From Amphiscolops sp. MND2022 (Eukaryota): a stretch of DNA of 60,000 nt. Within the stretch, counting starts at the first letter, position 1, and the number at the start of each line of letters is the position of its first letter. Shown here one piece after another: positions 792-54,308 of the stretch. Under the pieces are notes generated by a model. That model saw nothing but the letters and a program-made list of their open reading frames with translations. It did no database searches and was not told the origin of the DNA. The translations under genes and the position numbers were made by a program. The stretch covers positions 76,758,001 through 76,818,000 of the forward strand of contig OZ076409.1 in the NCBI GenBank assembly GCA_964187785.1. Reading direction: 5' to 3'.

Positions 792-1192
792 TGTGATGCC
801 ATGATGCATGTCCTCAAAGACTCTATAAATTTGAAATACTCTGAACTCTTAACCAAACCAATTAGTAAATGTAATCTAATTTAGAAGCTAAGAAACTTCA
901 TTTAATAGATCCTGTATCAAGCTCCCCTGCTTCATCCTGTCGCTGTCACATTGTTAATTGATGTAACCTACCCTAGTTAATAGAATATATCTACTCGGAG
1001 AAATTGAGAATTCATCCTAGCAATCAGTCTTCCTCCCATACTTTAAGAACTGAGAACTCAGAAATAGATTGTACTCAGAACTAGCTAGCTACAAGATAAA
1101 AGATAAGACGACTTCGCTGTTAAAATCTTAGACTTCTTATGTCAGTACTAACACTTCTAAAAGAATCCACCACACAACTTTTTAACAGCTCA
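792..1192 (+). repeat. 5' LTR of element A
   Basis: TGTGATGCC...ACAGCTCA, 401 bp. I count 9 substitutions versus 18291-18691. Confidence 0.97.
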
Positions 1193-1875: not shown

Positions 1876-1998
1876 ATGCCGCCTTCAGTAGACACTATAG
1901 TTAAACTCATTGTCTGCTTTTGGTTCTTTGTTGCTATCATTGCTGGTCTTGCACTTTTTCTGGACAAATTTTTAATTTCATTCATACCAAAACTTTGA
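1876..1998 (+). CDS. Putative 40-aa single-pass membrane peptide
   Basis: Translates as MPPSVDTIVKLIVCFWFFVAIIAGLALFLDKFLISFIPKL. A polypyrimidine-CAG acceptor-like site precedes it at 1708. A positional counterpart lies at 38821-38934. Confidence 0.35.
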   Translation: MPPSVDTIVKLIVCFWFFVAIIAGLALFLDKFLISFIPKL

Positions 1999-2266
1999 AG
2001 CACAACCGTTTTCTTCTATGTTAACAAGTATAGTACTACCTCTTTTTGGACTACTTAGTATCTACCACACCTTCCATATACGTATTCAATATACACAAAA
2101 CCCATTCCTTCTTTTCATAAGTATTGTACTTACTATTTTCTTACAAGTGGTTTTCATAGATCAAATTTTACCATATAACTCACAATTCAATACAAAATAT
2201 CTTCTTTTCCGATACATCTATCCTTTATAGCAATCTTATTGTACTAATCAAACTTAATATCATATA

Positions 2267-5200
2267 ATGCTCCCCACTCCATTTACAGTCACTACTGACA
2301 AAAGACAAAATCGATCTCTTATACAAGATGTAACACCTTTTCTACAAAACATTATCTTTCAGTACACTAACCCACTTCCATTTGAAACAGAACCCCATAT
2401 ATTACATACTATTCCATTAGTACGAGAACATTGTGATTCTTATCTATATTATATACACTATAAAACACTTGACATTACACCATCACAAATCCCTTTTCAA
2501 GTTATTTTTAACCCTGTTAAAGGAATAAACTCTGGAACATTTTATAGAACTATACACCCAAAAAATATTACACTTTCTATACAAGATGTTTTTCACACAT
2601 ACATGCAAAAACTCATTGAATTCAATGAAAACCAAGACACACCACCTTATTGTCCTTCTCATTTACAAGAACTAAAACACAGATCTGAATATTTCGAGGT
2701 CCCAGATCTTGACACAAAAGTCCAACGACATGATAACCCTCATTATTGGTTACAACGAGATATCTTACAAATAAAACATTTTCAGTACAGATTCTTTACC
2801 AACATTATTCTTACAGATGACACTATACCTCAAGTCAAAATTTTTACACAATTCTTATTAAAGTTTCTTAGATTTAACTATCAACTAATATGGGAACAAA
2901 AAGATCAACAAGCCTATATTAACTTCCCTCAAATATTAACACATATAGAACTCTTACCATACATCATAAAAAATGAAAACAAACATTTACATTACCGAGA
3001 TCTTACTTCACTAAATGTTACACATTTTGAACAAATAACCTTAGATCACAACTTTGTACTTGAACATTCTGAAACATCAGACAAGAGACCTTTCACTACA
3101 CCTGATACTTCTCATGAAACAACTCCTGAAGAACAAACCTCTAGTGTTGAACCTTCATATACAAGACAACAATCAGACCAATCAGAACAAGAATCCCCAG
3201 AACAAGAAGCCCTTACTAATCGTTTTCAAAATCCTGATCTTCCTCAAGAACAACTATCATACCCACCATTATCACAAATCTCAGATATACAACAACCAAA
3301 TCCTTCTGAAACAAATACAATTCACAATACATCAGAACTTTCTGAAGAAACAGTACAAAATACACGAAGTTTTACAATAACCGATGATTCAAATCTTATA
3401 CTAGTTGCTACCCACAATATCACGCAAAATGAATTTACAAACCAAAATCAAGACAACACTTCAAATACAAATCCAGACAATACCTCTATTTTATCTACAT
3501 CTAATACTAACATTACACAACCCTCTCAGACACAAATAATATTTCCTCGAAATTACAATCCACCTTCTGTTCCACCCCAATTCTCAACTCAGATAAACAC
3601 CCATGACATTCCTCAACAAAGCTCATCAAATACACCCTACATTGCACAAAACAATAATATAGTTCATTTTCAAACACCAACTCCACCATTATCTTCTGAA
3701 ATACAAACTTCGAATTTTACTCCAGCTCAAACCAATTCGGTACATTATACACGAACTACCTTAAACATTAACACCATCCATTCTAACCCATCTACAGATT
3801 ATACCACTGCAAGACATCTTTCTCGACCTCCATTACAAACTATATTAACTAATCCATTATCATACAGTCTCACCAGTACTAATCCACGTCATACACAACA
3901 ATCTCAGATAAATTACAATACATCTCACCAATTAAATACTCTTTCTTCTCAACATACATCCAATACAATCACTCCTACATTACAAACTTCTCAATTTCAT
4001 ATACCAAATCCTCCTTCGACAACAATTAGAACTAACCCTCACTTTCATAGTACTTCAACTACTTCTTTACCTAATATTTCCAATAACCCCACATACAATA
4101 CAACACCTCCATCTACTATGTCTCATAACACTATGTCACACCCAACATATATTAATTCTTCTACTTCTATATCAGAACCCATTAAACCTTTTGATGGACT
4201 TGATCACAACTATACACCTGAAGAATATTTACAACATATTGAGGCACGTGTTACATTTTCCTTAGGTTTACAACCTACATCGGAACATGAATATAAATTT
4301 TGGCACGCCCGTCGCATGGCTTTTATACAATGCTCTCTAACAGGCACAGCACTAAGCTGGTACATCCGTTTAAACGACACTTATAAACATGATTGGCACG
4401 CTTTCGTACAAGCTTTCAAAAAACAATTTTCCTCACAAAAGAACGCTTACTATGCTCAAGTTGAAGCCCTTAATTTAACAAAGAAAGACAATGAAACAGT
4501 ACGTCATTTTGCACTCAAAGTTCAACAACTGGTTGAAAAAGGCTGGTGTAATGAGAATGCATCTACTATAAACCTTAAATGTAATGAAATCTTTACAAAA
4601 GGACTTCCAAAAAACCTTAAAGATTTTGCAAATAAAAGACAAGTAAAACACACCTCCACTGTCTTAGGACCTTCAATTCCTTTTCATACCTTGGTAAAAC
4701 TTGTTGACGCTGAAGATATTGCAAACGACAAAATCAGAACACACGATCTTGCACTTGAAATCAATAATATCACAAAACAATTGAACACTCAAACTCTAGA
4801 TCACCCATCTCAAGAACAACTTATGTATACACAACCCAAAGACCCAAATAACAAAAATAAACCTGCATATAAAAAATATTGCTCATACTGTCATAGAACA
4901 AATCACTTCATTTCTGCTTGTTTCAAAAAACAACGAGATGATGAAGATAAACGAGAAGCATATGCTCGATCAAAATCTCCACAAAAATCATTCGTTCAGT
5001 ACTTTCGTTCTCCTTCCAATGACAGAACAAAACACTATGATAATCGATACCGAAGTCGAAGTACTTCACGAGACAACTCTTATAACCAAAAATATTCACA
5101 AAACCGATACCGTTCTACATCTCGAGATAGAGACAGATTTCGTTATGACAAAAGTACTACTCCTCCACACTACTCCAGATCAAGATATGATACATACAAA

Positions 5201-5329
5201 CGTGATTCTCGATCTTACCGTTCTCCTTACAGATCTTCTTATAGATCCCCATATAGACAAAACTCTCGTCCTAGATACAGATCACGCTCCTATTCAAGAG
5301 ATAACAAATTCACCAAATACACAAATTGA
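2267..5329 (+). CDS. gag: Gag region of element A: unknown N-terminal domain, low-complexity linker, capsid, CCHC zinc knuckle, RS-rich tract
   Basis: Retrotransposon capsid-like IKPFDGLD...LTGTALSWY...W..FV..FKKQF; knuckle CSYCHRTNHFISAC. The TGA at 5327 is in frame with downstream pol and is probably a mutation. Confidence 0.9.
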   Translation: MLPTPFTVTTDKRQNRSLIQDVTPFLQNIIFQYTNPLPFETEPHILHTIPLVREHCDSYLYYIHYKTLDITPSQIPFQVIFNPVKGINSGTFYRTIHPKNITLSIQDVFHTYMQKLIEFNENQDTPPYCPSHLQELKHRSEYFEVPDLDTKVQRHDNPHYWLQRDILQIKHFQYRFFTNIILTDDTIPQVKIFTQFLLKFLRFNYQLIWEQKDQQAYINFPQILTHIELLPYIIKNENKHLHYRDLTSLNVTHFEQITLDHNFVLEHSETSDKRPFTTPDTSHETTPEEQTSSVEPSYTRQQSDQSEQESPEQEALTNRFQNPDLPQEQLSYPPLSQISDIQQPNPSETNTIHNTSELSEETVQNTRSFTITDDSNLILVATHNITQNEFTNQNQDNTSNTNPDNTSILSTSNTNITQPSQTQIIFPRNYNPPSVPPQFSTQINTHDIPQQSSSNTPYIAQNNNIVHFQTPTPPLSSEIQTSNFTPAQTNSVHYTRTTLNINTIHSNPSTDYTTARHLSRPPLQTILTNPLSYSLTSTNPRHTQQSQINYNTSHQLNTLSSQHTSNTITPTLQTSQFHIPNPPSTTIRTNPHFHSTSTTSLPNISNNPTYNTTPPSTMSHNTMSHPTYINSSTSISEPIKPFDGLDHNYTPEEYLQHIEARVTFSLGLQPTSEHEYKFWHARRMAFIQCSLTGTALSWYIRLNDTYKHDWHAFVQAFKKQFSSQKNAYYAQVEALNLTKKDNETVRHFALKVQQLVEKGWCNENASTINLKCNEIFTKGLPKNLKDFANKRQVKHTSTVLGPSIPFHTLVKLVDAEDIANDKIRTHDLALEINNITKQLNTQTLDHPSQEQLMYTQPKDPNNKNKPAYKKYCSYCHRTNHFISACFKKQRDDEDKREAYARSKSPQKSFVQYFRSPSNDRTKHYDNRYRSRSTSRDNSYNQKYSQNRYRSTSRDRDRFRYDKSTTPPHYSRSRYDTYKRDSRSYRSPYRSSYRSPYRQNSRPRYRSRSYSRDNKFTKYTN

Positions 5330-8300
5330 TATAGACCACCTTCAAGACCAAGAGATTCTAGATTTTCTAGATCTCGCCCACACTCAAATTCCAGAAATAA
5401 AATCAAAATGATACAACAACAAGACCAAACTGACCCTATCAAATTTGAAGTACACATGTATCACCCAACAGCAATGGCAAATGCTGTCACACCTACAAGT
5501 TGGTTTTATACTCTATATGTACACACCCCATCAAGTATAGTACAAAGAGACAACCCATCTAGATTAGAAATTGCATTCCTCCTAGATAGCGGTGCTTCCA
5601 TTTCTGTACTCAATTACCCAACATACATAACTCTTACAAAACTCCTAGATATTAGATCAAATCACACCTCTGATGTTGGACCAACTCGAAATTCCAAAAC
5701 ATTAACCATTGCAAACCAAACTGAAGTTCCTATTTTACACTACGCAAATATAATCTTGAACACCACTATTGATGAAAACTCTCGTTACTTTTCAGTACTC
5801 TTCGCAGTAGCTGATATCAAATACAACATCCTTGGCACACCATTCTTCGAAGACAATATACAAAACATAAACATACAAGACTTTACACTCGAATTTAAAC
5901 ACCAATCAAAAACACACCCAAATTATACAAAATTCACAACACTCCTATCTAAAGATTATCCATACTTCTCTTACATTTATAGAATTAACTCAAAAACTCA
6001 GATACGTCTAAAACCCAAATCTTCCAAAATTGCAAACTTTCCGATCAAAAATTATCATAACCTTCATTTTACAACCACACCACAAAACCACTTCTTTCCT
6101 TCAGTACCTCATACCTAATTTGCTACCAAATTCCGTACAAATTTCAATTTCATTGAAGTTTTTACAGACGACAAGCCAGATATATGTGCAACTATTATTC
6201 AGAACACTTCAAAACATATTGCAACCCTACCTATTGGACATATTGGATATATTGAAGTTCCAATTACTAATGAAAAACCTAAATTTTTCCAAGTTAACGA
6301 CATTAATACTTTAATACATAACGTTACCTATACTTATCATCCTGATATTACTGAACCACTTCCACAGACCAACTATATTGTACAATATGATGATCCTACA
6401 ACCCCTCCTCCTCAATTCTCTCTACATCAAATTTATATGACAAATAACGATATTCCAAATCAAACTTCTCCTTTATATAACGTTCAGCCTACTTCTCATA
6501 CTTCCGAAAAACGCATTTTCCCTTCTCTCCCATAAACTTCTGAAAATTTGAAATTTATTATTCAATTTAAGGTTTCAATTTGAAATTTGAAACCTCACAG
6601 ATTCAGAATACATTACTCTTTGCAATATGTTACTCAAATATAAAACATGTTATGCAACTCATAAAAACGATGTTGGAAAAATTTCAACACCCTTTCGTAT
6701 AAGACTTAAACCAAATGCTCAACTTATAACACAACGTCCTTCCAAAGTCCCTATTCACTACCGAGACAAACTTAACGTACTTCTCAAAGAACTCGGAAAA
6801 TATAACATTATCAAACAAATTGGTTCTTCTCCTCAAGACAAACCCGTTTATGGCACAACTTATTTAAATCCTCTTATTATAATCCCCAAGGAAGATACAA
6901 TAAAATGTGTATTAGACGCTCGACATCTTAACTCCAATACAGAACAATCTGATGAATCTTGGCCTATTGAACCTCTTGCTCCACAACTAGCACGCGCAAA
7001 TAAAAAGTACAAATCCGCTATTGACCTTATGTAAGCCTATGCACATACACCTCTTGACGAAGAAACTATAAAACTCACTAGTTTCTCCTCCGGAGACAAA
7101 CTTTTCGCATTTATCCGAGGCTTTTATGGTCTCAAAGCACTACCAAACTTCTTTACAAAACAAATGTCTACTTTCTTTAAAACTCTTATAGAACAAGGTT
7201 TCGCTCTTGTCTACATTGACGATATATTACTTTTATCTGATTCTAAAGAACACATGTTTCAACTCATAGAACAATTGCACATTATTAGTACAAAAAACAA
7301 TCTTAAACTAGCCCCTGAAAAATCCTTTTTCATGCTTCTTAAAGTCAAATTCCTTGGACATGAAATTGGTTACAATACAATTAAACCAATCCTTTCAAAA
7401 ACTGCAGCTATTCATAAGATCCCTTCTCCAACTGGCAAAGTTGCCCTAATGAGTTTCATTGGCGCACTCAATTTTTACACCAAATTTATTGAAAAACTAC
7501 ATATCAACCTCAAACCATTTTACGATCTTTTACATGAAAACACTCCTTGGAAATGGACAGACGAACACGAAAGTCTATTCCAAAAACTTAAAATGTCTCT
7601 CACTTCTGAAACAGAATTAACAATACCAAACACAAAACATCCATTTTTTATTACAGTTGACGCTTACCTTATCGGATTAGGCGCTGTCTTATTCCAATTA
7701 AATGAACAAAACAAAATGAAAGTCATATCATACAACTCTCGTATACTTAATCCACAAGAACAAAATTTCTCCACACTTGATAGAGAACTTCTTGGTATAA
7801 TACACGCACTTCAAATCTATGAATTTCTCATCATAGGTTCCCCCCATCCAATACACATTTTCACTGACCACAAACCTTTATTACATTGTTTTACAAAGAA
7901 AGGTAATCTCAGTCCTCGTTTCTATAGAGCTCAAATGCAACTGACAAAATTTTCAAAACTCAAAATAATTCACACGCCTGGAAAAAATCTCTCTGTTGCC
8001 GATATGTTGAGTCGCTCATTCACAAAAGCTGAAATACAACTAAACCAATTAAAACATAAACACCTCCCACCACAAATCGATTTTGCACTTTTACAAGATA
8101 ACACTCTTAAACCTGTACATTACTTAATAAAACATGAAGAAATTTTACCTCATCAAAAACATGACTCTCATCCAATTCTTGCTGGTTATGGTACAGATCA
8201 ATTCTCTATTCGTATCAATGATAAAGAAAATGACATTGTTGTCAAACCGTTACAATCCTTCTCATTCAAATCCATAACTCCTTTTCAAACTAAGTTCAAG

Positions 8301-10472
8301 ACACCTACCAAAAAGAACAACAAAACCCTTCATCAACCATCTCTCTTACTTAATGATACTGACGTTACAAGTGATGACGAAGATCATATTTACACCAGAA
8401 TTCCAAAATCTGACTCTTCCTTCTTACAAGACACAACATTACAAACAGAAAATTATTCTACTCTTAAGCAACCAACTCACAATACCTCACAAAAATCAGT
8501 TTCTGCAATAATTGTACAACCAAATTTACCATCTCTCACACACTGTCAACAAATCGTACCTTTTTATGATACATCAATTTTTAAGTACAAAAACTATTTT
8601 CAAGGTTTCTTCCTTCCCGATGATTACTCATTAGACATAAAAACTCTTCAACAACAACAATCTCAAGATCCGGTTCTTAGAACTGTTTATTCTTGGTTAC
8701 TAAATAATGAAAAACCCGAATTTGTAACACCTCTTATCACTGGTACTCCATTTCTACATGTATATTACAAAAGATTTTCACAACTTTTCATTGACGAATC
8801 CACAAATCTTATTAGTCTATATATTACAAACCCCACTGTTATTAACCAATCCTCTACTCCAAATTTTGTACAAGACACTATTCGTATATGCCTACCTTTC
8901 CGACTGTTTAAAACTGTCTTTAACAAACTCCATGAACACTCTCATACTGGTATGAAAATCACCTACAATACATTCAAACAATATTGCTATATCCCATTCC
9001 TTGAAAAATGGCTTTCCATTTTTATACATGATTGTATTGAATGTCAACGAAACAAACACTTTAATATGAAAATCCAAACTGCTCCCACACAATCTTTTTC
9101 AGAACATGCTCCATCTTTCAACTATCGAATTTCAATGGACACTAAAGGACCTATTAATCCTCCTTCTCGCAACAAATCCTATATACACGTGATAATTGAC
9201 GCTTTTAGTCACTTTGTTGTTACAGTACCCATCAAATCAAACAACGCAAAGACTGCTATCAAAACTCTCCTACACCATTGGATATTTAAATTTGGACCAC
9301 CCATATATCTTGTCACCGATCGTGGATCAGAATATGTTAATAAAGAAATGGCACACCTTTGCACACTTATGGGAATTCGTCATTCTCCTCGAACAGCTTA
9401 TTCTCCTTGGACAAACGGCCTTGTTGAAGTACAAAATAGAAATCTTGGTACCCATTTACGGATGTTCTTACATGACAAACCTAAAGATTGGGCATTCCAA
9501 GTCCATATGTACGCTTATGCACATAATTCACAACCACTTTCAGAACTCAACATTTCACCTCACGAAATTGTTTTCCACACTCGACCCAGAATACCCCTTA
9601 CATTTGATTTGAACCTTAACCGAGACACCTCTAAAACATGTATTTCACGATATTGCTCTCAACTTCCAGTACACTCCCATTATGATAAATCCGATTTAAA
9701 CCCATTTTTCTATAAAACACTTTCAAAACCCATTCCACATTGGTTTCTCGCTGTAGAAACTGCTATGTTACAAATTTATTCTACAGTACACGAAAACACT
9801 CTAAGAAAAATCAATTCACACGCATATATTACAAAAACTTACCATGAAGGTAAACCCCTTCCTATTGGTACCTTTGTTTTAAAACGCAATTTTACCCACG
9901 TTCACTTTTCTGACAAACTAAAACCCCTTCGGACTGGACCATATAAAATTCTTGACAGATTATCAGACGTCACATATGCACTACTTGCACAAGATGGCTC
10001 TACAGTACACGTCCACAGAAATCATTTAATTCCATATTATCCAAAAGAACCACTCTTATATCCACACCTGCGTAGTTTTATGCGCTTTTCAGACACAACT
10101 CAATTTCAAATTCCACAACCTACCAAATATGCAAACATTGATTCTTCTCCTTTTAACTCAGACGAATCGTTGTCAGAAGAAGATTCCCAAACATTTGTAA
10201 CACCATCATCATTTAGTACATCCAATCAGAATACACCATCTATAACATCCAATGACAATTCTTTGACCCCCTCAACCAATGACAACTCCTTATATAGACA
10301 TATAATTAATACCCCTCATACTATTATCTCTAGTGACAGATCAAGACACTCATCTAATAACCAAACCACTTCACTTCCTCCTCTAATTGACAGAACCACA
10401 AAAACTACCTATAAACTACGACAACAACCCAAATTAGATTATAGACTTTTCATTACACCTTCACAACTGTAA
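5330..10472 (+). pseudogene. pol: Pol of element A (aspartic protease, RT, RNase H, integrase), interrupted by stops at ~6116, ~6533, ~7032 and a frameshift at ~6560-6600
   Basis: PR FLLDSGAS; RT VLDARHLN and VYIDDILL; RH ITVDA.LIGLGAVL, RELL, FTDHKPL; IN HEHSHTG...CIEC, ISMD, VTDRG, NGLVE, and GPY module KLKPLRTGPYKI. Confidence 0.95.
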
Positions 10473-10558
10473 TCTAGTCATTCTATCTGTTGGCTCACTC
10501 AAAACTAGTCACTCCGGTTGAATGAAATATAACCCGTAACAAGTTATCTCAAAGATAA

Positions 10559-11796
10559 CCTGTTGAAAACACTTCAACAACCCTGGATCCTCCCTCTGAT
10601 ATATCTCCATCAGCTCCAAGTATTCCTTCCCCACCTGAATCTTCAGTATCTAGCACTACAAACTCTAGTAATGTAACTCCTACTACTCCTTCTAAAAGAC
10701 CAAGATCATACATCTCTGAAACTACCTCTTCCTCACTTCTTCACAGACCACCTATAACTGAAATTCCTATAAACACTCGTCCCCAACAAACTCCTATTAA
10801 CACTCCTATTATACACATACCAAACCCTGAAAGTGTTGAACAATACGTAACATACAAACATCCTACAGCTATCAAAACTGTTAGACTCCAACCTCAACTT
10901 AATCTTGTACAAATCCCTGATACTGAATATACAAAGCTACCTCCACTAAAATTACCTTCAGAACTTAGCACTACTCCTTCAAAACTTTATCCACCATTAA
11001 AACCTCTTCGAAAACCCTCTACATCACTCTCGAATCTCTTAGACAATAATACTTCAGACTACGCTCCATCACAAGACACAAGCTCACTTTTTGTACCTAA
11101 ACATAGATATAATCTTCGTGACCTTCACGTAGACTTAGTACAGACACTTCAACACTCAATTTTTCGACTCTTTCTAGCAATTCTGCATTACGACTTGTAC
11201 GACAACACGCTCAACCATTGTCCTCTGACACACCATCTTCAGAACTCTTTCAATCTCCTTGTTTTACTTCTGGTTTTGAAACCGCTTCAATACTCTCATC
11301 TAACCCACAGACTGCATTTCTATCAGAAGATCTCTTTCCACAAGTAGTAATCCCTACTCCTGTTCCTGCACATATTAGACTGCCCGAATACTATACTGCA
11401 GAACACTCTAGACCTCCAACTCCAAATTTTGCTGACTATCCACTTAGAGTCGATGGTATAACCATCTACGACCCACAAAACGATCCCCGATTTCCAATTC
11501 TTGCAGAACGTTTTATTAACAATAACGACCTCTTATCTCACAAACGCAAAGAAACAGAACTAAAACGCCTTCAGACATCAAATCTAGAACTTAAATTTGA
11601 AGTCAAAGTTATATTTCAAGGATTAAATCCACACACAATATTTCACGTTTCTAAGATAGAACATAAAACCTCTCCTGCTCCTTTCGAAGTAGTACATATT
11701 GAATTTGAACGCGATCTTAATATACCCACTATCACATATAGCAATATTGTCTTCTGTAACCCATATTCCGGTCTTAAATATACAACATCTTTTTAA
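10559..11796 (+). pseudogene. ORF-X: Pro/Ser/Thr-rich N-part with PSAP and LYPxL motifs plus conserved C-terminal domain (matrix/budding-like, unknown family); one frameshift near 11120
   Basis: An open frame from 10559 contains SPSAP (PSAP at 10607-10618), LYPPL (10985-10999) and RYNLR. The C-part (ORF 11218-11796) aligns with 47920-48444 (TSGFETAS, RFINN, LKFEV, NPYSGL.Y). Start codon not identified. Confidence 0.75.
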
Positions 11797-14446
11797 ACCC
11801 TATACAACCTTTTACATAACAACTCTAATTCTTTATTTACATTTATTTAACTCTACCTCTTCCATACCCATAACACCCTCTGACACTGACAACTATCTTC
11901 CATCGGATGACCCGAATATTACAAATCTCATGGTTTCTCATTATGACTGTGCAAAACAACACAATCTGAGACAATTTAATTTACTCAATGTAAAACAATG
12001 CACTGAAGCTCCTTCCGACATTAAACATGCAAGTGTTAAAGCCCGTGTATATGTCCGAGCAAAAGCTAAACGCATCAAAGCTTTTAAATGTGTTGCTTAT
12101 GCAAAAAAAGAAAGAAAAATATGCTTTCAAGGTTCCGTAAAACACCGTCGTGTTGATAGAACCGTATGGAATCATAATACATTACCGCTCCCTGTTACTC
12201 TTGATCCAGCAGAATGTAAAAACATTATACGACATTAAAATGGTACAAATAATAAAATACTGAATAACCTTCAATACAACAAAACCTTTACACTCTTAGA
12301 AGACCATTATTTTCAAGAACGTTTAGAACAATATCAAACTCCTTTCACTGTATATCAACTGAACAAAATGTATACAGGTACATTTACATTTATGCCTGCT
12401 GATAAAAACTGGATATATGACCCTACAAAAAACCCTTACCATAACTGTCCTGCTCATCATCAATTCGAAGTCAACTTAGTTAGTTGGCTACTAGAAGTTT
12501 CTGAAGTAGAACTTACATATGATGACACATCAAATGACATGATAATTGATGGACATACATTACCCTGCTATTTTGCAGATGGCTTCTGTAAACCCACTAC
12601 AAAAACTCCTTTTACTCTTGTTCGGTTTAATGATGATTATTGTCTAATTTTTACCCTACAAGACTTTATTGGACGTATGACTAAAATTGAAGATAGATAT
12701 TGGATTGAAACAGACTCTTTTGTACATTCTCCACATCCAATAAAATCTAAAACAGCTTCTGGCATAAAAGGTACAGAACACCCCTATGTTTATGCTCCTC
12801 ATACACAACACCCAAATAATCCAAGTCTTTCAAGGTTTGAAGTTTTCCCTACAGCACAAACCTTCTGTGGTAAACCAGACCCTCTTTATTCTACACAATA
12901 ATCAGACCTTTTTGTTACATACACTGATGGTTTCAATATGCATACAGGACAACCTAATCCTCATTCCATAATTGATGAATATATTTCTGGTAAAATAGTA
13001 TTGGACACTTCAAATAACAAATTTGTATTTCCTGCATTAAATGTATCAAACAATTTTGCTACCATTGATTATGATGCACATGTAAACACCAAAATCGATT
13101 ATACTATTAATCATGTCTTCCGATCAATGACAGTACAAGAACTAAATACTCTTCATACAATATGTGAACTAGAACGAAATCAACTCCTTACAATACTCGC
13201 AATGTCAGTACAAAACCCTCAACTTGCTGGTTTCCTTTTAACTGGTAATAGAAGTAACTTCTTATACGTTGAAGGCTCAACCGCCTGGCTTTATGACTGT
13301 CCTCATTTTTTATCTCCTTTATACAAAGCAGATAGATGCTTTGACCGTATACCCATACATTTTAAAGAAACCTTAATGTACGTTGATCCTATTACAAGAC
13401 AAACTTATGATTATGCTACACCAATTACATGCGATAATAATCCACGTAACATTATTGAACTAGATCTTGATTCAGACGATCAAGACTTTTACATTCTTGG
13501 ACCTGAACCTATCAAACGCAAACCTCCACTAATGTTTACACCCTCACAAATCAAAACTACAATACGCCCTAATACTTTTACAGCCCAAGATGCTGGTATA
13601 TATTCAAATGCAGAACTTGATCAATTTTGGAACCGTATTTTATTTTCTAAACATTCTGATTCTACACTCCAATTACTAGGCAAAGCTCTTAGTTATTCCT
13701 TCATTTCATCTAATACTCCAAATTACGATGCAGATTCCCCTCAAGATTCTGGTAATCCTTACAATACATTACGCATAGGACTCCATGATAAACTCTTGAA
13801 TTTAACTCCTCTTTTTACACCTACATGGTTTTCAGATGCTTTTATTGCACTTTTTGGATACCCTTGTTACATTCTCACACAATGTGGTATATACTTTTCT
13901 ACATTTCTTTTCGTACAAGCTACTCTTACACTCATTAAAAAACTGTACAAAACAATATCTATTAAATATAATCTCAAAAATAATATTACTTTACTTAGTT
14001 CTATAGCACATGGTTTTTTTAATGTTCTTACAGCACGAATGGTCAGTGACCTCCATGAGACTCAAAACAAAAAACCCAAAAGTACACTTTTAAAATCCAA
14101 ATCCTTAGATAATTTTATTGACACTTCTCCAAATTTAATTAACCATTCTACCGATGTTACTTCCCCTCCACCTTTCTATACTAAACGACCTAACAAAATT
14201 CAATTTCCTAAATTTAACTTCTTTCCGAAACGACACCACAATTCTCACCATAAAACGACTCCACTTCCTTTCTCTCCTGTTCAACATCCTACACTTCCTA
14301 ATTATACTCATAAAAACTTTCACTCGAATGACAATCTAACTACTCAACATGACACTTTAATTAACAATCCTGTCACTTCTACTACGGATACACCAATTAA
14401 AATTTATTCGCGGATAAACTATCCTTTTCCTCCTCCATCTTCTTGA
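11792..14446 (+). pseudogene. env: Envelope glycoprotein, class III fusion-protein-like (chuvirus G / herpes gB type), two premature stops
   Basis: ORFs 11699, 12368 and 12938 share one frame. Signal-like hydrophobic stretch, HYDC...NLLNVKQC, CELER.QL..ILAM...NP.LAG, CFDRIPI...YVDPITR...C, N-glycosylation sequons, C-terminal TM (ILTQCGIYFSTFLFVQATLTLI), long tail. Confidence 0.85.
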
Positions 14447-14705
14447 ACACTCTCTCAGTTTTTCTGTAACTCTCTTTCAGTACACTTGCCTACTATTTCT
14501 TCACAATTGCTACTCCTCCACCACTCGAAACTCTTGCAGAAGTTCATCTTCCTCAGCCCAATAATACTTTAATAATAACCGTCTTTAAAAACTCTCAACT
14601 AAAGTTGACAAATCCACTCGTTAGTGTAATTTATAGTACTTTAACTTTAAAGTGCTAAGGCCTCTTGGAATAGATAACACTGTGATTGTTGATGTTTTTA
14701 AAACA

Positions 14706-16033
14706 ATGACACAAGCACAAATTGACCTACAAACACAGCTTGAACAAGCAACCCCAACAGAACTAATAACTAGACCTCTTTCAAATGATTCTCCTGTTCT
14801 CTATATTGAGACTTCAGAACAAACACCTCCAACTTTTCTTGAACCAATGGAACACACAAAAGTTGAAAATGAAAATCCAAAACCTACTCCTTCACAAGAT
14901 GATACTGATCATACACAATCGACACCACCTCCTCCCAAAAAACGATATGAAATAATGAAAGATCCAATCTTTCTTTCATCACCAATATATCCTCCTTCAA
15001 TACCTTCAAAAATTTCACTTTGCACGAATCGCGATGATCATTTGATCTCAATTCTTTCTACTGACGATTTCGTCTTCAAAGCACAACTAACTTCTCTATA
15101 TATGCATCCTACTGACTATTCATTTCGCTTATATGACAAAAATCAAGACTTCTTCACATCCATTGCTTCCAAAATAATGGGTCCATACCAATATTGGCTC
15201 GAGAATGGAGTTAAAATTTTCTCTCTCCAATTCAATTTTCTTCGACCTTCTATATACGATCTCAAAACAGATGAATCTGATCCATCCTTTCTCTCTATAG
15301 CACAAAAAGCTACTCATCATCAGACATATACTAAATTCCTGCAATACACGAAACCACAAAATCATATTTTTGTCAATTACAAATATACATCACCGTTCAC
15401 AATGACAAATATGTACACTCTGGACCACTCCTGTATAACAGGCTACCTTCGGAACTATGACCCTATAAAACAATACTTCTGTTTACTCCCATATAACAAT
15501 ACTTCACGTCCACCTATTGTACCTCAAGAATATCTCATACATTACAATGATTTTTTGTTGCCCTGCAACATTCCTACTCAAATTGCAAAACCTCTTACTG
15601 TTATTAAACACCTCGTTTCTTCTCCACTTGACGATAAAGATAGAACGTACTATACAGTTTCTACAAGCAAACGTATTCATACAATGAATTCCTCTTTATC
15701 TCTGCCAAAACTATCTCTTTCATGGTACAAGCTGAACAAAAAACTGAACATAAATCACACGCTTCACCTATAAAAAACGCTCCTCACAAACTTTCTTCTG
15801 TATTAAACAACCGAACACTTCGCGACATAACAAATTTACTTGAACCCTATAAACGAAACTCCTCTTAAACACCTATCACAACACTCACACCTATACTACA
15901 CTGCTACGACAGAACACACAAACTCCTTCAGACACTCGATTTAGACTCTCAACGCATCACTCAATCATCCCAAGCAATCCAATCTGCTTTGGAAACTATA
16001 ACTACTCTTTTTAACTCAACTAATCTTCATTAA
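14706..16033 (+). pseudogene. ORF4: conserved accessory protein of unknown function (frameshift ~15670, stop ~15866)
   Basis: Aligns with 51038-52310 (LTS.YM.PT.Y.F, TSIASK, LRNYDP.KQ.F, RP.IVPQEYLI, YSY.E..FIS). Confidence 0.75.
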
Positions 16034-16451
16034 AATCTTCTACAGGTAATATAAAGTTCTTAATTTTTCTTCTATGGTACACCCTATGATACATCTGTGA
16101 CACATCCTTCAAGGTATTTTCATTTTTACCTACTTATTTAAGGTAAATTCTTGCTTTTGAATAAAATCTCAGGACTATTTTTCAAGTACACTAATTTTTC
16201 CTACAGTACATGTCGTAAAATTAACTATTTCTATTAAAAACACTACAATACAAGACATACAAGACAATATAGCACAACACTACATATGATACATTAAAGC
16301 ACCCAATTTTGTTGTACATCTTTGACTTGATATTGTCATTCTTCTTACACTTCCTTTGTTTTAGAAACATCCATTCTTCTTCCTCCTCCTTCCATTCTCT
16401 TTCAGAACATCTCCACTTCTCCTTTTTCGTCTTCTACAGGACTCTCTCGTC

Positions 16452-16904
16452 ATGGCCCCCAACGCTGAAATACAAGATATAATTACAATGATTTCCAGCC
16501 ACTCAAAAGTTGATAGCCTAAAAGCAGCTATTTTTCACACAATGGCCTACAAACTTTCCCTGGAAATAAACAACAATAAAATAACGCCAAAATCTCTTAT
16601 CGCCTTTCTGAAAGTCTTATATAATGTCACCCAAATCAAAAAGAAACACATTACATTTGAACAATATTCAAGGATTCATGTCGCCGGACCAAAAATTGCC
16701 ATTCGTGAAACGGCTTCTAATGTCGTTTTTGTGTTAAACTCGGCGTTCACGTCTAAAGACCAATACTTTCAAGCTGCCTTCCACGAAGCCACCAACGCAT
16801 TCAACGAGATGCTTCATAGTTTTGGATATACCCAGAAACTCGAACACTATGATCCTCACCAACATCAGGCACATCCACCTCAACAACATCCTCTATACAA
16901 CTAA
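16452..16904 (+). CDS. ORF5: 150-aa accessory protein of unknown function
   Basis: Intact ATG ORF in good context (GTCATGG) directly after a polypyrimidine tract plus CAG (16437-16439). Weak similarity ITFEQYSRIH to INFDQYLKLH at ~53030 in element B. Confidence 0.55.
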   Translation: MAPNAEIQDIITMISSHSKVDSLKAAIFHTMAYKLSLEINNNKITPKSLIAFLKVLYNVTQIKKKHITFEQYSRIHVAGPKIAIRETASNVVFVLNSAFTSKDQYFQAAFHEATNAFNEMLHSFGYTQKLEHYDPHQHQAHPPQQHPLYN

Positions 16905-17110
16905 AACAATATTCTACTTACTTTATCACTCTTCAACTCCATCTCTTCTTGAATCCGTCATTCTTCCTCAATGATGTTTGAGATGTAGCTGTCGCTCACT
17001 CCTTCAAAGAACTCCTACACATGCTGAAACTCTTCAATTCACCCATTCACGATGGTCAACAACATACATCTCCATTTTGGGTTCATCGACGTTGCCAAAC
17101 TTTGTCCTCG

Positions 17111-17225
17111 TCACTGGTCTTCACACTCCACGATGACTTCTTGACTGGTCTTCACACTTCAAATGCTGACTTCTTGACTGGTCTTCACACTTCAACTGCT
17201 GACTTCTTGACTGGTCTTCATACTC
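17111..17225 (+). repeat. 33-bp tandem repeat (~3.5 copies) in the 3' region of element A
   Basis: GACTTCTTGACTGGTCTTCACACTTCAACTGCT repeated. Confidence 0.9.
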
Positions 17226-18290: not shown

Positions 18291-18691
18291 TGTGATGCCA
18301 TGATGCATGTCCTCAAAGATTCTATAAATTTGAAATACTCTGAACTCCTAACCAAACCAATTAGTAAATGTAATCTAATTTAGAATCTAAGAAACTTCAT
18401 TTAATAGATCCTGTATCAAGCTCCCCTGCTTCATCCTGTTGCTGTCACATTGTTAATTGATGTAATCTACCCTAGTTAATAGAATATATCTACTCGGAGA
18501 AATTGAGAATTCATCCTAGCAACCAGTCTTCCTCCCATACTTCAAGAACTGAGATCTCAGAAATAGATTGTACTCAGAACTAGCTAGCTACAAGATAAAA
18601 GATAAGACGACTTCGCTGTTAAAATCTTAGACTTCTTATGTCAGTACTAACACTTCTAAAAGAAACCACCACACAACTTTTTAACAGCTCA
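18291..18691 (+). repeat. 3' LTR of element A
   Basis: Direct repeat of 792-1192, followed by TSD TTCA. Confidence 0.97.
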
Positions 18692-36704: not shown

Positions 36705-36982
36705 TGTACTGACCTACATTAATAACCAATAGTATTTAGATGTTCGTAGAATGTTCTAGAATGTACATTTATTTATTTTTGAATGACTGTAAAACTCTTC
36801 TCCTTCAGAGAGAGAAAACTAATAACCAGTATTTGGTCGACTTCCTTTTTGCTCTACTTCTACCATCTCATAGCTAGCTAGCCAGACCTCGACGCAGCCT
36901 TTCTTAGTAAGCCTTTAAGTAGCCACCTCCACCTTTCAATAAAATAAAAGGCAAACACCCAACAACTATTTATGGCAGCACA
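36705..36982 (+). repeat. 5' LTR of element B
   Basis: TGTACT...GGCAGCACA, 278 bp; about 10 substitutions plus 1 indel versus 54030-54308; AATAAA near the 3' end. Confidence 0.97.
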
Positions 36983-47084: not shown

Positions 47085-48444
47085 AACTCAGATACTGACA
47101 TACTGGATTCCTCGTCCTCAAACCCCAGCCCATCTGCTCCATATTCTCCTGATAGAGCACCAGCTACACCCACTAATACACCTATACTTCAAACTCAAAC
47201 TTCAGTAATAACAACTCAACCACAAGCAATTCCACAAAAGTTGTTATTCTTAGACACAGGTTCACCAACCAGTGACTCGTGTGATGAATCAAATACAACA
47301 CAAAATACTGTACAAGATACCTCAAGTATCCTAATTAGACCCCCTCTTCCTCCAATTCCTACCACCTGTACTGTTCATATCCCTGATCCAAGTTCTGTTC
47401 TTCAATTTATTACTCCTTGTCCACATAAAATACCAACAGCAACCAAAACACAAAGAAAAACTCCTTTGCCTACACTACCAAAAAATCTTACTTTTCCATC
47501 AACAAGTCAAACTCTAATAACTACTATACCAAAACATACAATTAAATCACCAATAAAGAAATTACCAGAACTCCCAATTAACTCACCATCAGAACTGAGT
47601 TCATTCACATTTTCTCAATTATATCCAAGATTAGAACTACAACGTGTACAATCAACAACTACTTCTTCTTTACCAGACTTATATTACAAAGATAAAGACT
47701 CTGATTCAACTGCTAGTACTAGAGTACCACAACATAGTTACAATCTAAGATCTCAATCTAGACGAAATTCTCAAGAATTACAATCTTTAACTAGTTCTAG
47801 TACTAACTCTAGACTAGTTAGACAACAAGCACAACCACGATTAGATACTCCTTCTCTTTCCTCATCTCACCCTACAATACCATTGTCTTTATCAATACCA
47901 TTTCAAGTAACATCAGGATTTGAAACAGCATCTCTTCTTTCTGAAGATCCACAAACTATATCAGATAGTGAAGCTAACTTTTCACAAGTTTATTCACCTA
48001 GTTCAAAACAATCTAACTCATCTGTACAGTTACCTGAATATTTCTTGGAAGATTATTCAAGACCTCCTACACAAAAATCCACACGAATACCCTATCCGTG
48101 TTAACTCAAGAATTTTTCGTAGTTTTAACGAACACCCTCGATATACTGTACTACCCATTAGATTTATAAACAATAGCGCTCTTTCAAATCCAAGAAAACA
48201 AAGAGAATTACAAAGGTTACAAGAAGACCAATTAATATTAAAATTTGAAGTTGAAGTTACTTTCATCTCATTTAGACCTCATCCAATTTCTCTTTCAACA
48301 AGGGTAGCACATAAAACAACTACCTCACCATTTTTAGTCACATCTATATCCTATCTTTGTGACCCAGATTTACCAGAAATTAGATCAGGGCATATAAATT
48401 TCTCTAATCCTTATTCAGGACTTAATTATAGAACAATATTTTAA
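47085..48444 (+). pseudogene. ORF-X of element B
   Basis: PSAP (47130-47141), LYPRL (47619-47633), SYNLR, TSGFETAS and the conserved C-terminal domain; frameshift near 48080. Confidence 0.75.
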
Positions 48445-48446: not shown

Positions 48447-50500
48447 ATGAATAACAAAAATTTTAACTAATACATTGTATACAAAATACATGCCGTTAAA
48501 TACGCATTCATAGTACACTTAGTTCATTCCTCATCTGTTCCTAAAGTTCAAAAACGAGTTCAAAAACCTTTTAGAGTAACACAATTAAACACTTGGCATA
48601 TTAGAACATTTGTACTCGATGAAAATTATTCTGATTGGATAGTTAATTTTACAAAAAATTCATACTCAAGATGTAGGAGTGACCGAGAACATTTAATTAC
48701 CCGACAAAGTGGGGAACTTAGAATAGTTAATACTATAATAGACTACGATGATAAAAACAATTATATGATTCATGATGGACATATATTACCATGTTACCAT
48801 TCAGGCGGATTTTGTAAACCAACAACAAAGACTCCATATACATTACCATGGTTTGATGAAAAGTTTGGCCTCATATTTCAAATACAAGAATTCATTAGAA
48901 GAATGACAAGAATTGAAGATCGGTATTGGATAGAAACAGACACCTTTATCGACGCCTCAAATATTACACAAAAATTTCAAACTGAAGGAAAACAAGGAAC
49001 AAAAGTTCCAAATGTTAAAACACCGCAATCACCTGTAGACAATCCAAGCCTTTCCAGATTTGAAATATATCCAATTGCTCAAACGTTTTGTGGAAAACCA
49101 GATCCAGTATACTCAACACAATATGAAGACATCTTTGTTACATACTTAGATGGTTCTGATATGAACACTGGACAACCAAGACCACACTCAATGATAGATC
49201 AAAGAATTAGTGGACAGATACAATATGACAATACAAATAAAAAGTATATATTCCCTGCACTGAATATATCAAACAATTTCGTCACTCTAGACTATGATGC
49301 TCACATTAAAACAAAAATTTACTTCACCATAAATCATGTATTTAAATCCATGTCAGTACAAGAATTAAACAAACTTCATACAATATGTGAACTAGAAAGA
49401 ACTCAATTGTTAACAATCTTAGCTATATCAGTTAAGAATCCTCAATTAGCTGGTTTTCTTTTAACTGGAAATCTTAGTAATTTCCTCTATGTTGAAGGAT
49501 CTACAGCATGGCTGTATGATTGTCCTCATTTTATATCACCACCATATAAGACAGATAAATGCTTTGATAGAATTCCCATACACTATAGAGAAACTATAAT
49601 GTATGTTGACCCTATAACAAGACAAACTTTTAACTATGCAACACCAATTGAATGTGGAAACAACCCACAAAATATAATCGAATTAGACCCTGATTCAGAT
49701 GACGAAGATTTTTATGTGTTAACACCAGAACCACTTAAAAGGGAAGCACCACAAATGTTTAAACCTACTCAAATTAAAACCACAATAACTCCCAGTACCT
49801 TTACCGCCCAAGAAGCTCGTATATATTCAAATGCAGAATTAGATCAAATCTGGAATAGAGTATTAGTTGCAAAACACTCAGACACCACTCTCCAATTACT
49901 TGGAAAATCATTAAGTTTTGATTTCATTACTGTACATAATGAACGTCACTCCCATTCAGGACCCAATCTTTATAATCATTTAAGAATTGGAATACATGAC
50001 CACCTATTAAACTTTTTACCACTTTTTAACCCTGACTGGTTTAGTCAAGCTTTTATTAACTTCTTTGGATATCCATGTTTTGTTTTAACACAATGTGGAA
50101 TTTGTTTTTCAACATTTCTTTTCATCAGAGAAGTTTTAACATTTTTACTTAAATTTTACAGAACAATTAGTATAAAATACAATCTCCAAAGTAACATTTC
50201 TATTTTGAGTTCAAAAGCTCATGGATTTTTTAAAATAGTAACATCGGAAATGGTAACTGATTTAAACAATACAGGAAAGCGAAAACGGATGTATACTAAA
50301 CACAAAATTACCACTAGCGAAAACGACAATATCCTATTGCCGAAAAAAGGAACACAAAAAAAATGAGAAGATACTCTGATAGCGACTCCCCTTATTTGCC
50401 GCCCAAATATACAAGTAAAAATTCAACACTTCAATCACCAAAAAAGACACACCCAAACAATAATACTGATATTAATTCACAGGACTATGACCCCATAGTA
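48447..50500 (+). pseudogene. env: env of element B, N-terminal ectodomain deletion and tail frameshift
   Basis: ORF 48765-50366 closely matches 12540-14060 of element A (GFCKPTTKTP, CELER, CFDRIPIH, TM segment). Confidence 0.85.
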
Positions 50501-51037
50501 TAAAATGTTATAGCTTTACCGGAAAGCCCCGCTAAAGTCTTTATAAAATTTAATCCCTCCTAACCAAAAAGCAATCACCAAATAAAACAAATTAACTCAA
50601 AAAGTTCACAAAATTAAAAATAAATTCCCCACCGATTTTACTTTCATTCAAACTCAAATTCTCATTTGGACAAGTTGCCAACTTCAACTCAACACAAGTT
50701 GCCCACATCAATTTAACCAAAGGAACTTAGAAGTTCTTCTTCTTATTTCAAGAATTTGGCCTAATTCAACTCAGCCAAACAATCTTCAACTTGACCCTCA
50801 GTCCCTGTAAACAGACTGAAATTACAGAAGTTTCTATTCCGGGAATAGATACCACTGTGATTGTTGATGTTTTAACCCTCAACTAACTCAAAGTATTTCA
50901 ATACTGTAAGTACAATTTAAACCCTATTTTCAATAATAACTTTAAACTAATGGACCAAAAGTATATAACAAAAACATTAATCTTTGTTAAAAGGTATAAT
51001 TACTGTTTTAGCGCTACAAAACACACGCGTTTAAATA

Positions 51038-52310
51038 ATGGAATACTTGCCCGATGTTGATGTAGTTAATTCTAGCCCTTCTGAATTGCATACATCCCCT
51101 TTAAACATAACTATTCAACAAAATGTTAACGAAGATAATAATTCATCTTCAAATTCTCAAGATAGTATGGAAGTTATTCCAGTTGATCAAATTGATCATA
51201 TAAACACAAGAACTCAAAAACGAAAATACCCAGATATAACTGCTGACAAACCTTTTATGGAATCTGGCGCTTGCCCTCCTTTCATAAAACCAGTAAAACA
51301 AGATGAAAACAGAGACAGTGAATTAACTCCTATTTTATCATCAAAACAATTTCCATTTCAATTTCATTTAACCTCAATATACATGATACCAACCAAATAC
51401 AAATTCATCATCAGAGAATTCAAAAATGATTATCATACTTCAATTGCTTCAAAACTAATCACCCCTATGACTGGTGGTTAAGCAATAAAGTGAAAATTTT
51501 CTCAGACCATCTCTATACGACCTCAGAACTGAAGAAAATGACACAAATTTTTTACCATATCAAATAAAGAAATCTCATCATGTCTCTTACCAAAAGTTTC
51601 TTCAATACAAAGAACCTGAAAATTACTTGTTCTTCAATCCGAAATGTACATCACCCTTCACTTTCAACTCAGAATATCTGAGAAATCATACTAAAACAAA
51701 GGGAAAACTCCGAAATTACGATCCTTTAAAACAAAGTTTCCTTTTCCTTCCAAATGATAACCCGAAAAGACCAATTATTGTTCCACAAGAATATCTCATT
51801 TTAATTGACGATTCGCTACTACAGGAAAATAAACCTCAAAAAATATCAGATCCTTTTCCTCCACTTCAACACATAGCCTCTCAACCCCTTGGAGACAGCG
51901 AAAAATCTTATTACTACGCTATGACCAAAAAGGGATATTCATATATTGAATTAATATTCATTAGTTCTCATCTGCTTTCACTTCTTATAAAAGGAAATAA
52001 TAAAGAACACAAAAAGACAAAACACGACTCTCCAAAGAAAACAAAAACGGACATTCCTCAACCACAAGGTTTCCTCCTAACTGAAGAATTACAAATATAC
52101 AAAGAAATATTGGATGTCAAAAAACCGTATCATCATTCAAAAAGAGATATCATCGTCACTATTGCCGAAATCGTAAACACCCTCGAACAAGCTCGAAATT
52201 TAATACAAAGTATCGTATTTGATACGACGAGAGTGAGCCAATCAGCTTCATGTATACGCACATCCTTAGATGATTTCAGCTACATATTTGAAAAAATGCA
52301 AAGATCTTAA
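51038..52310 (+). pseudogene. ORF4 of element B (frameshifted)
   Basis: Homologous to 14706-16033. Confidence 0.75.
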
Positions 52311-52716
52311 CTGGTAATTATGGGATAATAGCTTTATAATTGTTAACATTTATCACTTAAACTCTTAACAACCTGTCAAAATGAATTGAGTCTACCCGTA
52401 TAAGCTTGCTATGCATGACTGTACTCTATATTAAATAATAAAATACACTCCATACTAAAAGAATGAAATTATTTTCATTAGCGACATGAAAAATTTTAAC
52501 AAAATTCTTCAAATGCTCCTCCTTTTATTGAACCGATTTTAACCAATAAGATCTTAAGTGAAAGATATTTAAATACCCTACAAAAGACTTCCAAAATACA
52601 CTAACTTGATTCTTAAATATAAAAAAAAATAACACATTAAAGTACATAAGAAAAATGTCAACTATAAAAATCCATTTTTAAAAGAAATTCAATGTGAACA
52701 AACCAATCTATTTCAG

Positions 52717-53182
52717 GTGAATTTCGCCAAAACTTCTTCTTCTACATTTCTTCTTCATCTCAAGACATTGATCCACTGGCTCTGAGCGACAATTCCCAAT
52801 TATTCAGTCATTTCCTTCAAATTCTTCTAAAGATGACATTACTGGATTCAACTAAAGAAGAATCTCCAATTGCCCCTCTGCTTTCAGTTCCTTCAACTCG
52901 ACTCCGATCCCTCATCCTGAAAAACATTTACCAACATTCTATACACAACTTACAAAAGAAAAAAGAGCTGACCCTCACTTACCCAGATTAATTCTTCTAA
53001 ATATGTTTCAAATCTTCCAAGTAACGAAGATCAATTTTGACCAATACCTCAAACTTCACAAACATCCGGATACATATATTATCCAATGCGACGCTACCAC
53101 ACAAACTGAATATACTACCATACGCCCAAAGCCTTTTTCGAGAACTTTATCCAATAAGTCTCGTACAGAATTCGAAAAATAA
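52717..53182 (+). pseudogene. Possible degenerate ORF5 of element B
   Basis: Follows a TTTCAG acceptor-like site at 52716. The frame ...QVTKINFDQYLKLH... weakly resembles ORF5 of A. Confidence 0.3.
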
Positions 53183-54029
53183 AATCTTACATCATATTGG
53201 CCCCCAGATGAATGTGACACCACTGACGAAGAACTTCAAAAAGACCCCCCTGAAGCTTCTATCGACCACAATTCTGTGTAAATATCGTATACTTACGTTT
53301 CCTTTTGATGAACATCTTCAACAAATTCAATCAGTCAACATCCCAGATGACATCATTCCACAATGACAGCAACATCTCTCATATGAATCGCCCAGATGAA
53401 CAGAATGCATTGACGACTTCAAAAAGATCATCCTCCATCCTCACCCATCATCGACTCAAGCCACCCAAGATAATCCAATCAATCAACAGATGATATGCAG
53501 ATAATATGAATAACAATAAATAATCGACAGCAGAAAAACAAAAAAACATTGTACTTGATTATGAGTAAAACTTTAGAAACACTTATTTGAAATGTACTTG
53601 CGATTAAATTTATCTTAAAATATACAATAATAATTCCCACCCATATTTATTTGCCCTCATATTACTCTCATCTTGTGCCCATACCGATATTTATATGCAT
53701 ATTTTCAATGAATAATTCAGTAATATTATTTTTCAGTGCTATTCAATCCTAATAATTCAAAATGTTAACAAAATTCTTTTCAAAATTTCAACAAAAATGA
53801 GTTCAAAAATTAGATCAAGCACACTGCTAAATCTCAATTTGAATAATGAGAAACCCAATTTCTCAAAGATTTTAACATTTCTTACATAACAAACCCGCCA
53901 AAGTTGAAAACAACCTGAAATCTTTAATAAGGTTTAAATATTATAATTTATGAAATCTTTAATAATCTTTAAACAACCTGAAATCTGAAAATAATGTAAA
54001 AAATTAATTTCTTTAAAAACCAGGATGGA

Positions 54030-54308
54030 TGTACTAACCTACATTAATAACCAATAGTATTTAGATGTTTGTAGAATGTTCTAGAATGTACATTTATTTA
54101 ATATTGAATGACTGTAAAACTCTACTCCTTCAGAGAGAGAAAACTAATAATCAGTATTTGGTCGACTTCCTTTTTGCTCTACTTCTACCATCTCATAGCT
54201 AGCTAGCCAGACCTCGAAGCAGCCTTTCTTAGTAAGCCTTTAAGTAGCCACCACCACCTTTCAATAAAAGAAAAAGGCAAACACCCAACAACTATTTAAG
54301 GCAGCACA
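54030..54308 (+). repeat. 3' LTR of element B
   Basis: Direct repeat of 36705-36982, followed by TSD GCTG. Confidence 0.97.

Follow-up and report, generated by a model that had tools for sequence, protein, structure and literature searches.

Late motifs for virus budding normally lie in Gag, and the locus described here raises the question of how cores are enveloped and released in invertebrate retrotransposons that carry env. In a window of 60,000 nt from Amphiscolops sp. MND2022 (contig OZ076409.1), the initial annotation had described a stand-alone ORF, here called X, which lies between pol and env of two elements and contains such motifs. Our analysis offers a testable answer to the question, namely that the late motifs may be carried by a dedicated protein coupled to Env, and not by Gag.

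The window contains two full-length LTR elements of 17.5–17.9 kb, A (792-18691) and B (36705-54308), with LTRs of 401 nt and 278 nt, respectively (Table 1). Their Pfam domains follow the Ty3/gypsy order (PF03732, PF19259, RVT_1, RNase H, Integrase_H2C2, rve), and env corresponds to PF24664, Monjiviricetes_fusion (E 5e-21 in A, 3e-14 in B and 2e-27 in a third family, C), with no match for Env among PDB sequences. Judged by sequence, A and B are Ty3/gypsy (Metaviridae)-type elements with a gB/chuvirus-type (class III) env. Copies elsewhere in the genome have five ORFs: gag-pol (>2,600 aa), X, env (~920 aa), ORF4 and ORF5. In families A, B and C, the gene after env is ORF4, with 436-551 aa and 36-42% identity between families (window 14637-15773 and 51035-52310; loci L062, L066 and L178), and its conserved core, which resembles SH3/Tudor domains by eye, ends in G.LRNYDP.KQ.F...VPQE; it has no Pfam match, and the ESM Atlas returned nothing for it. 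ORF5 varies by family, with ~150 aa in A and B and ~300 P/S-rich aa in C (window 16365-16904 and 52698-53366; L178), little similarity across families and no Pfam match.

Table 1. Features of elements A and B, numbered from the first nucleotide of the window
Feature	Positions	Strand	Remarks
5' LTR of A	792..1192	+	97.8% identity with 3' LTR; 4-bp target-site duplication
gag-pol of A (capsid, protease, RT, RNase H, integrase)	2267..10472	+	broken here; single frame in other copies
CTG, proposed start codon of ORF X in A (ACC-CTG-G)	10583..10585	+	
ORF X of A	10583..11796	+	405 aa from CTG in most family-A copies; frameshifted near 11,120 here
PSAP (TSG101-type late motif) in A	10607..10618	+	residues 9-12 from CTG
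LYPPL (ALIX-type late motif) in A	10985..10999	+	
YNLR in A	11108..11119	+	Y-x-x-R spacing as in the foamy virus Gag chromatin-binding motif
Conserved islands RQHAQ and TSGFET of A	11200..11283	+	
Folded C-terminal domain of X in A	11404..11793	+	predicted beta-hairpin, two helices, five-stranded sheet; without known family
env frame of A (PF24664)	11693..14446	+	start broken, internal stops in this copy
PPFY (PPxY), Env cytoplasmic tail of A	14168..14179	+	
ORF4 (truncated here) and ORF5 of A	14637..16904	+	without Pfam family
3' LTR of A	18291..18691	+	
5' LTR of B	36705..36982	+	96.1% identity with 3' LTR; 4-bp target-site duplication
ORF X of B, from CTG (ATA-CTG-G)	47103..48444	+	frameshifted near 48,075-48,100 here
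PSAP in B	47130..47141	+	
LYPRL in B	47619..47633	+	
YNLR in B	47739..47750	+	
env of B	48447..50410	+	ATG 2 nt past X stop; broken here; PPKY at 50399-50410
ORF4 and ORF5 remnants of B	51035..53366	+	
3' LTR of B	54030..54308	+	

The proposal of a stand-alone ORF stood as regards a separate gene under purifying selection, although both copies in the window are frameshifted. When the 1.07-Gb genome was searched with the X domain, first-look candidates numbered in the thousands; each search scored 150 of them, and at least four families of X were recognized: A, B, C and a degraded D. In many genomic copies X is a single open frame from stop to stop, with 413/418 codons in A, 482-490 in B and 453-478 in C, and the protein would have 405-450 aa, about two-thirds of them disordered. 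Between subfamilies, dN/dS is 0.16 (A), 0.23 (B) and 0.09 (C), with 0.12-0.27 in the N-terminal P/S/T-rich part and 0.04-0.15 in the C-terminal domain. Identities for A-B, A-C and B-C are 79/74/71 in RT, 68/57/57 in env and 48/42/40 in X; since X, env, capsid and RT all place A closest to B, X appears to be an old resident of the lineage. Altogether, these comparisons between copies show that X is protein-coding, under purifying selection and inherited with pol and env. The end of the gene is also constant, as X terminates in Phe and a stop, written TTT-TAA in nearly all copies of families A, B and C (window 11791-11796 and 48439-48444), which suggests that a C-terminal Phe is needed or that this ending acts as a signal for coupling to env. 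A +1 frameshift at this shared TTT-TAA, fusing X to Env, was considered and rejected because env starts at an AUG of its own and the offset between the two frames varies from family to family.

Where does X begin? According to the initial annotation, the X of element A lacks a start codon. Indeed, this copy has no in-frame Met, but the absence is a family trait and not damage. When X is compared between families, similarity sets in at a CTG, located at 10583 in A and at 47103 in B. The start was analysed in 174 loci, restricted to frames that run to the natural stop and span 395 codons or more, which provided 86 distinct copies with an anchor and 6 without; the copies sampled were the top matches with open frames, and not a random draw. 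CTG with A at -3 is found in 86/86 anchored full-length copies (34 from A, 21 from B and 31 from C), the G at +4 being forced by the anchor, in which Asp is the second residue. Of the six full-length frames missing the anchor, three retain the CTG context and one shows TCG, with two left unmatched; the CTG context recurs in 2/3 degraded family-D copies among those listed. CTG accounts for 1.7% (A), 0.2% (B) and 0.3% (C) of the other Leu codons of X. Moreover, the codons of PSAP and LYPxL vary synonymously between families, whereas the CTG start does not. The region following the CUG forms no stable hairpin (z -1.0 to +1.3), and short AUG frames lie ~60 nt upstream of the CTG in family A.

An alternative origin for X would be a fusion, produced by readthrough or frameshifting from Pol or by splicing to an upstream exon with an AUG, and not initiated at CUG. 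The short distance from the pol stop to the CTG in A (only ~110 nt) would suit such a fusion, as would the frame of family B, which is open for 36-70 codons upstream of the CTG in 20/21 copies. Nevertheless, in-frame stops are located 2-8 codons upstream of the CTG in 25/34 copies of family A (2 codons away in 4/34, 8 codons away in 19/34), and the spacing from the CTG to its landmark (29 nt in 23 copies, 30 nt in 9) differs by 1 nt between subfamilies and breaks the frame. The gaps from pol to CTG, 110-350 nt, also differ among families, no shared splice acceptor was found before the CUG, and a fusion would leave the invariant and rare CTG unexplained. We therefore consider this origin highly improbable. 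In family B, an in-frame ATT in strong context is conserved upstream of the CTG (20/21 copies; window 47007; dN/dS 0.4 over 36 codons), and translation may also begin at this ATT, without AUG, to give an extended X.

The sequence downstream of the CTG is strikingly poor in ATG. Counting all frames, X has 0.7-2.4 ATG per kb, versus 13-24 in pol, env, ORF4 and ORF5, and 25/31 copies of X in family C contain no ATG at all over ~1,340 nt. Compared with dinucleotide shuffles, X has 2, 1 and 1 ATG where 8.5, 7.4 and 7.5 are expected (P up to 0.002), whereas the counts in pol, env, ORF4 and ORF5 are at or above the shuffle expectation. The depletion is weaker in family A under a codon shuffle (P 0.084), does not reach significance in the C-terminal domain alone (P 0.15-0.28), and the P/S/T-rich stretch of family A Gag is also AUG-poor (5 versus 7.6 expected, P 0.15). 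The commonest AUGs left in X open miniframes of 1-2 codons in A and of 15-16 codons in B. As for env, its AUG is placed just before the X stop in A, and mostly 1-34 nt past it in B and C. A comparable arrangement has been described for RTBV, in which passages of the published account report an AUU start with leaky scanning across 900 AUG-free nt (PMC5902531).

Because X is nearly AUG-free, ribosomes that pass the CUG would reach the AUG of env. From the conserved CTG, the AUG depletion and the position of the env AUG at the X stop, we infer CUG initiation with leaky scanning to env. Thus, the start of X is very probably a CUG in favourable context, and the ribosomes that skip it would scan ~1.2-1.3 kb to the AUG of env, so that a single mRNA would yield X and Env at a fixed ratio; this mRNA may arise by splicing, from an internal promoter or through reinitiation after pol. 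One sequencing run of unspecified kind, uninformative as to expression, provided three contigs without a splice joint, one of which, of 9.9 kb, extends from 9,498 through the 3' LTR. With CUG present in every anchored copy of three families and AUG purged over >1 kb, the trace that non-AUG initiation would leave in evolution is unusually clean here.

The late motifs themselves are located where the initial annotation had placed them (Table 1), and PSELS is present upstream of LYPxL in both window copies. Their retention in further members was confirmed for LYPxL, in four families and one outside homologue, but not for PSAP, which is missing from family C. LYPxL is found in 31/34 copies of A, 16/21 of B (20/21 for YPxL) and 29/31 of C, while IYPRL occurs in one of the two family-D copies aligned. 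LYPRL is also present in the outside homologue P0073, whose best match in the Amphiscolops sp. MND2022 genome is only 52% identical, and the motif occurs in 45/54 database proteins that cover this stretch. In the most distant lineage (P0137) there is no YP at the aligned place, and four further distant fragments end short of it. PSAP is carried by 31/34 copies of A, 21/21 of B, 1/3 of the degraded D and 0/31 of C. A conserved late motif in the disordered region of X is therefore found as LYPxL in A, B, C, D and P0073, and as PSAP in A, B and one D copy; the 130 residues before the C-terminal domain are predicted to be disordered. A reading of PSAP as a disguised splice acceptor was rejected because its codons vary synonymously.

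It could be argued that the late motifs are no more than chance words of a P/S/T-rich linker, passed down from a shared ancestor, and that only the C-terminal domain and other conserved islands are functional. The linker region is 43-46% P/S/T, composition shuffles within each family generate P(S/T)AP in 2-3% of trials and [LI]YPxL in 0.7-1.7%, and PSAP is absent from family C, all of which is compatible with chance. Since the families share ancestry, the evidence provided by the motifs is their retention in place despite synonymous codon changes. In this regard, only 22/270 residues are identical across five lineages, and three of them are the Y, P and L of L/I-Y-P-x-L, with the x position left free. 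A chance origin for the motifs is, in our view, very unlikely.

The other structural proteins distribute their motifs differently. Neither P(S/T)AP nor YPx(1-3)L was seen when Gag, minus its first residues, was scanned in a single copy from each of A, B and C; the complete Gag of window A has YPPL at 3260, which is not in the other A copy scanned. PPxY is present in the Env tail of 8/8 Env frames examined, plus window B, and would arise by chance in 5-19% of shuffled Env tails, depending on the family. Exons for the ALIX V-domain (PF13949) and the UEV-domain (PF05743) are found in the host genome above the Pfam cut-off.

With these data, our preferred explanation, to which we assign a probability of about 0.5-0.6, is that X is a separately encoded adaptor for assembly and budding that would recruit ESCRT. 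Initiation at the CUG of the env mRNA would supply small amounts of X, whose N-terminal 270-300 disordered residues would recruit ALIX through LYPxL and, in most families, TSG101 through PSAP. The folded C-terminal domain would anchor X at the budding site via the Env tail, the capsid or a membrane, thereby bringing ALIX and TSG101 to the sites where cores meet Env, and the Env tail would add a PPxY route. In MLV, the corresponding motifs are PSAP, LYPAL and PPPY (PMC4848597, in the part of the text available). The three types of late motif that MLV has in Gag would in these elements be split between X and Env.

The late motifs had also been presented as conserved islands within a divergent region, which is correct as to their conservation, but they are not the only islands. 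Among the first 270 residues of X, 56 are identical in A, B and C, grouped in approximately seven islands that include H.YNLR, L.R.HAQ and TSG..TA, and YNLR, RQHAQ and TSG..T are conserved at least as well as the late motifs. YNLR is present in 32/34 copies of A, 19/21 of B and 31/31 of C, and YNL- or YSLR-like words occur in distant fragments without a visible LYPxL. The letters of the foamy virus motif are likewise YNLR, and foamy Gag also has PSAP. The chromatin-binding motif of foamy virus Gag, which shares the Y-x-x-R spacing with X, anchors to the acidic patch through Y537/R540 (PMC6042332, in the passages available); there it is part of Gag, and in X it is a putative binding motif. At the end of the integrase tail, a Y-x-L/F-R-like motif followed by DYR echoes the YNLR of X (window 10410-10421 and 46784-46792), and such a motif is also seen in families C and D; as Y.LR it is present in the integrase tail of A, C and D.

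It is tempting to ask whether X acts chiefly in the nucleus or in the early phase, as an accessory protein, either a chromatin tether of the MLV p12/foamy Gag type or an RNA-export factor of the Cer1 CERV type, whose dose is kept low by the CUG and whose late motifs are secondary. The conservation of YNLR, the presence of YNL- or YSLR-like words where LYPxL is not seen and the basic motif TPSKRPRS in the X of family A all favour this possibility, and there is a precedent in CERV, an accessory protein of a Ty3/gypsy-type element reported, in the part of the source available, as needed for RNA export (PMC10309623). Such a role would nonetheless leave unexplained the retention of LYPxL in five lineages, the PSAP placed 9-12 residues from the start and the tight coupling to env; moreover, a Y.LR is already available in the integrase tail of A, C and D. 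A mainly nuclear X is the main rival of the budding adaptor, but an unlikely one. Returning to the budding adaptor, YNLR may provide it with a second, p12-like role as a tether of the incoming core to nucleosomes, and X may combine the adaptor function with tethering or export, as for MLV p12.

The C-terminal domain of X was described initially as a conserved globular domain of ~120 aa; it is conserved, but its size is nearer to 130-140 aa. In its AlphaFold model (pLDDT 77, pTM 0.49), a beta-hairpin and two helices accompany a five-stranded sheet, and the domain has a pI of 8.0-9.4. Neither Pfam nor PDB sequences gave a match for the domain or for X. A search of 1.84 billion representatives with the X domain returned 136 matches, and among those listed (at least 125 aa) we found apparent copies of the X family, plus one spurious repeat protein. 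Unnamed phage-like clusters of the ESM Atlas (0.91-0.93) showed low recognition and were set aside as noise. The comparison with viral matrix proteins that had been suggested for this domain was carried out by fold searches (Foldseek and VIA-align against PDB; BFVD) with two models of pTM 0.49 and 0.39, and nothing was found at E 0.001 or Z 5. The best matches obtained with these low-pTM models, Z 4.1 (rmsd 4.1, 65 aligned) and Z 4.0 (rmsd 3.9, 69 aligned), were tied with unrelated beta proteins and were no better than background. At this model quality, the searches speak neither against a matrix fold nor for a new one. The C-terminal domain represents a conserved family without a known relative.

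The initial annotation had proposed that X could be a matrix protein captured together with the glycoprotein. In that case, X would derive from the matrix gene of a negative-strand RNA virus, acquired with the glycoprotein gene as an M-G block. X does sit directly before a Monjiviricetes-type fusion gene, its late motifs are N-terminal and followed by a small alpha/beta domain, and X and env diverge in the same order. The five-stranded sheet with two helices predicted for X recalls the core of rhabdovirus M, and the matrix gene of rhabdoviruses and filoviruses adjoins the glycoprotein gene. However, with no sequence match for the C-terminal domain and no fold match for its low-pTM models, the capture of a viral matrix gene is not supported. 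X lacks both a transmembrane segment (its best 19-residue hydropathy is 0.65-0.79) and a Gly2 for myristoylation, and Gag has its own N-terminal domain, a conserved stretch of ~200 aa without annotation that precedes a long P/S/T/N-rich linker and the capsid (2267 to ~2900 and 38936 to ~39700), and that could be the matrix equivalent. Short-pattern searches of IMG/VR, which find close relatives only, identified no relative of X or env, and metagenome contigs gave the same result. At 405-450 aa, two-thirds of them disordered, X also differs from the late-motif-bearing matrix proteins of rhabdoviruses and filoviruses, described in part in PMC8402826, with which it shares the placement of late motifs in a protein apart from the capsid, but which are much shorter. 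In addition, the gB-type env of Ty3/gypsy elements is reported to be ancient and to co-diverge with pol (PMC13524379). Overall, capture as an M-G block seems distinctly unlikely.

A broader proposal can be formulated only tentatively, and we consider it possible at best: these elements would form a retrovirus-like lineage in which budding has moved out of Gag, and a CUG-initiated, matrix-like protein with an undescribed fold would recruit ESCRT, share its translation with a class III Env through leaky scanning and also serve as a chromatin tether, resulting in a hybrid of retroviral and negative-strand-virus assembly.

Ty3/gypsy elements with a gB-type env have been published (PMC13524379), and they resemble A and B in their LTRs, gag, PR-RT-RH-IN order, class III-type env after pol and many near-identical copies. 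Those elements are described as gag-pol-env, whereas A and B have in addition X, ORF4 and ORF5, and neither 'late domain' nor 'matrix' appears in the main text of that survey. Its screen admitted up to 1,000 nt between pol and env in 10 kb regions; the gap in our elements, which contains X, is widened by it to ~1.3-1.6 kb, so this layout falls outside those limits. As X is also invisible to AUG-based annotation, similar genes may be overlooked elsewhere. We found no description of ORF X, its start or the five-ORF layout in the open-access literature; thus, the type of element is known, while the X gene, its CUG start and the layout are apparently new.

Several other systems share individual traits with these elements. 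Anakin, from BEL/Pao, has a chuvirus-like fusion protein but belongs to another superfamily, and the passages available show no separate late-domain ORF (PMC7642597, PMC12440569). The MA-p12 region of MLV Gag has PSAP, LYPxL and PPxY, and p12 tethers to nucleosomes (PMC4848597, PMC6021111, each in part); there all three motifs are in Gag, whereas here they are found in a separate ORF and the Env tail. RTBV shares a non-AUG first ORF, ~1 kb without AUG, a downstream AUG ORF and tolerated short internal frames, yet it is a non-enveloped plant pararetrovirus that uses AUU and has these ORFs upstream of the polyprotein (PMC5902531, same passages). Cer1 CERV, the sORF2 of the MDG1 group and the bdelloid ORF3s are also extra proteins beyond gag, pol and env, with roles in RNA export or cell-cell fusion or as enzymes, and their abstracts mention neither a CUG start nor late domains (PMC10309623, PMC11952523, PMC5408684).

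Finally, some features of the surroundings deserve mention. At locus L176 (4744-10000), the X stop of one family-C copy is followed ~3.3 kb later by the start of another family-C gag-pol, and the interval contains no ORF4 or ORF5 frame of at least 140 aa, which makes the arrangement tandem or nested. The leaders of A and B (1.1-2 kb) contain short direct repeats of 44-45 nt at 1387-1651 and 37220-37548, and a tandem array of 14-15 nt units lies between the two elements at 20944-21147.
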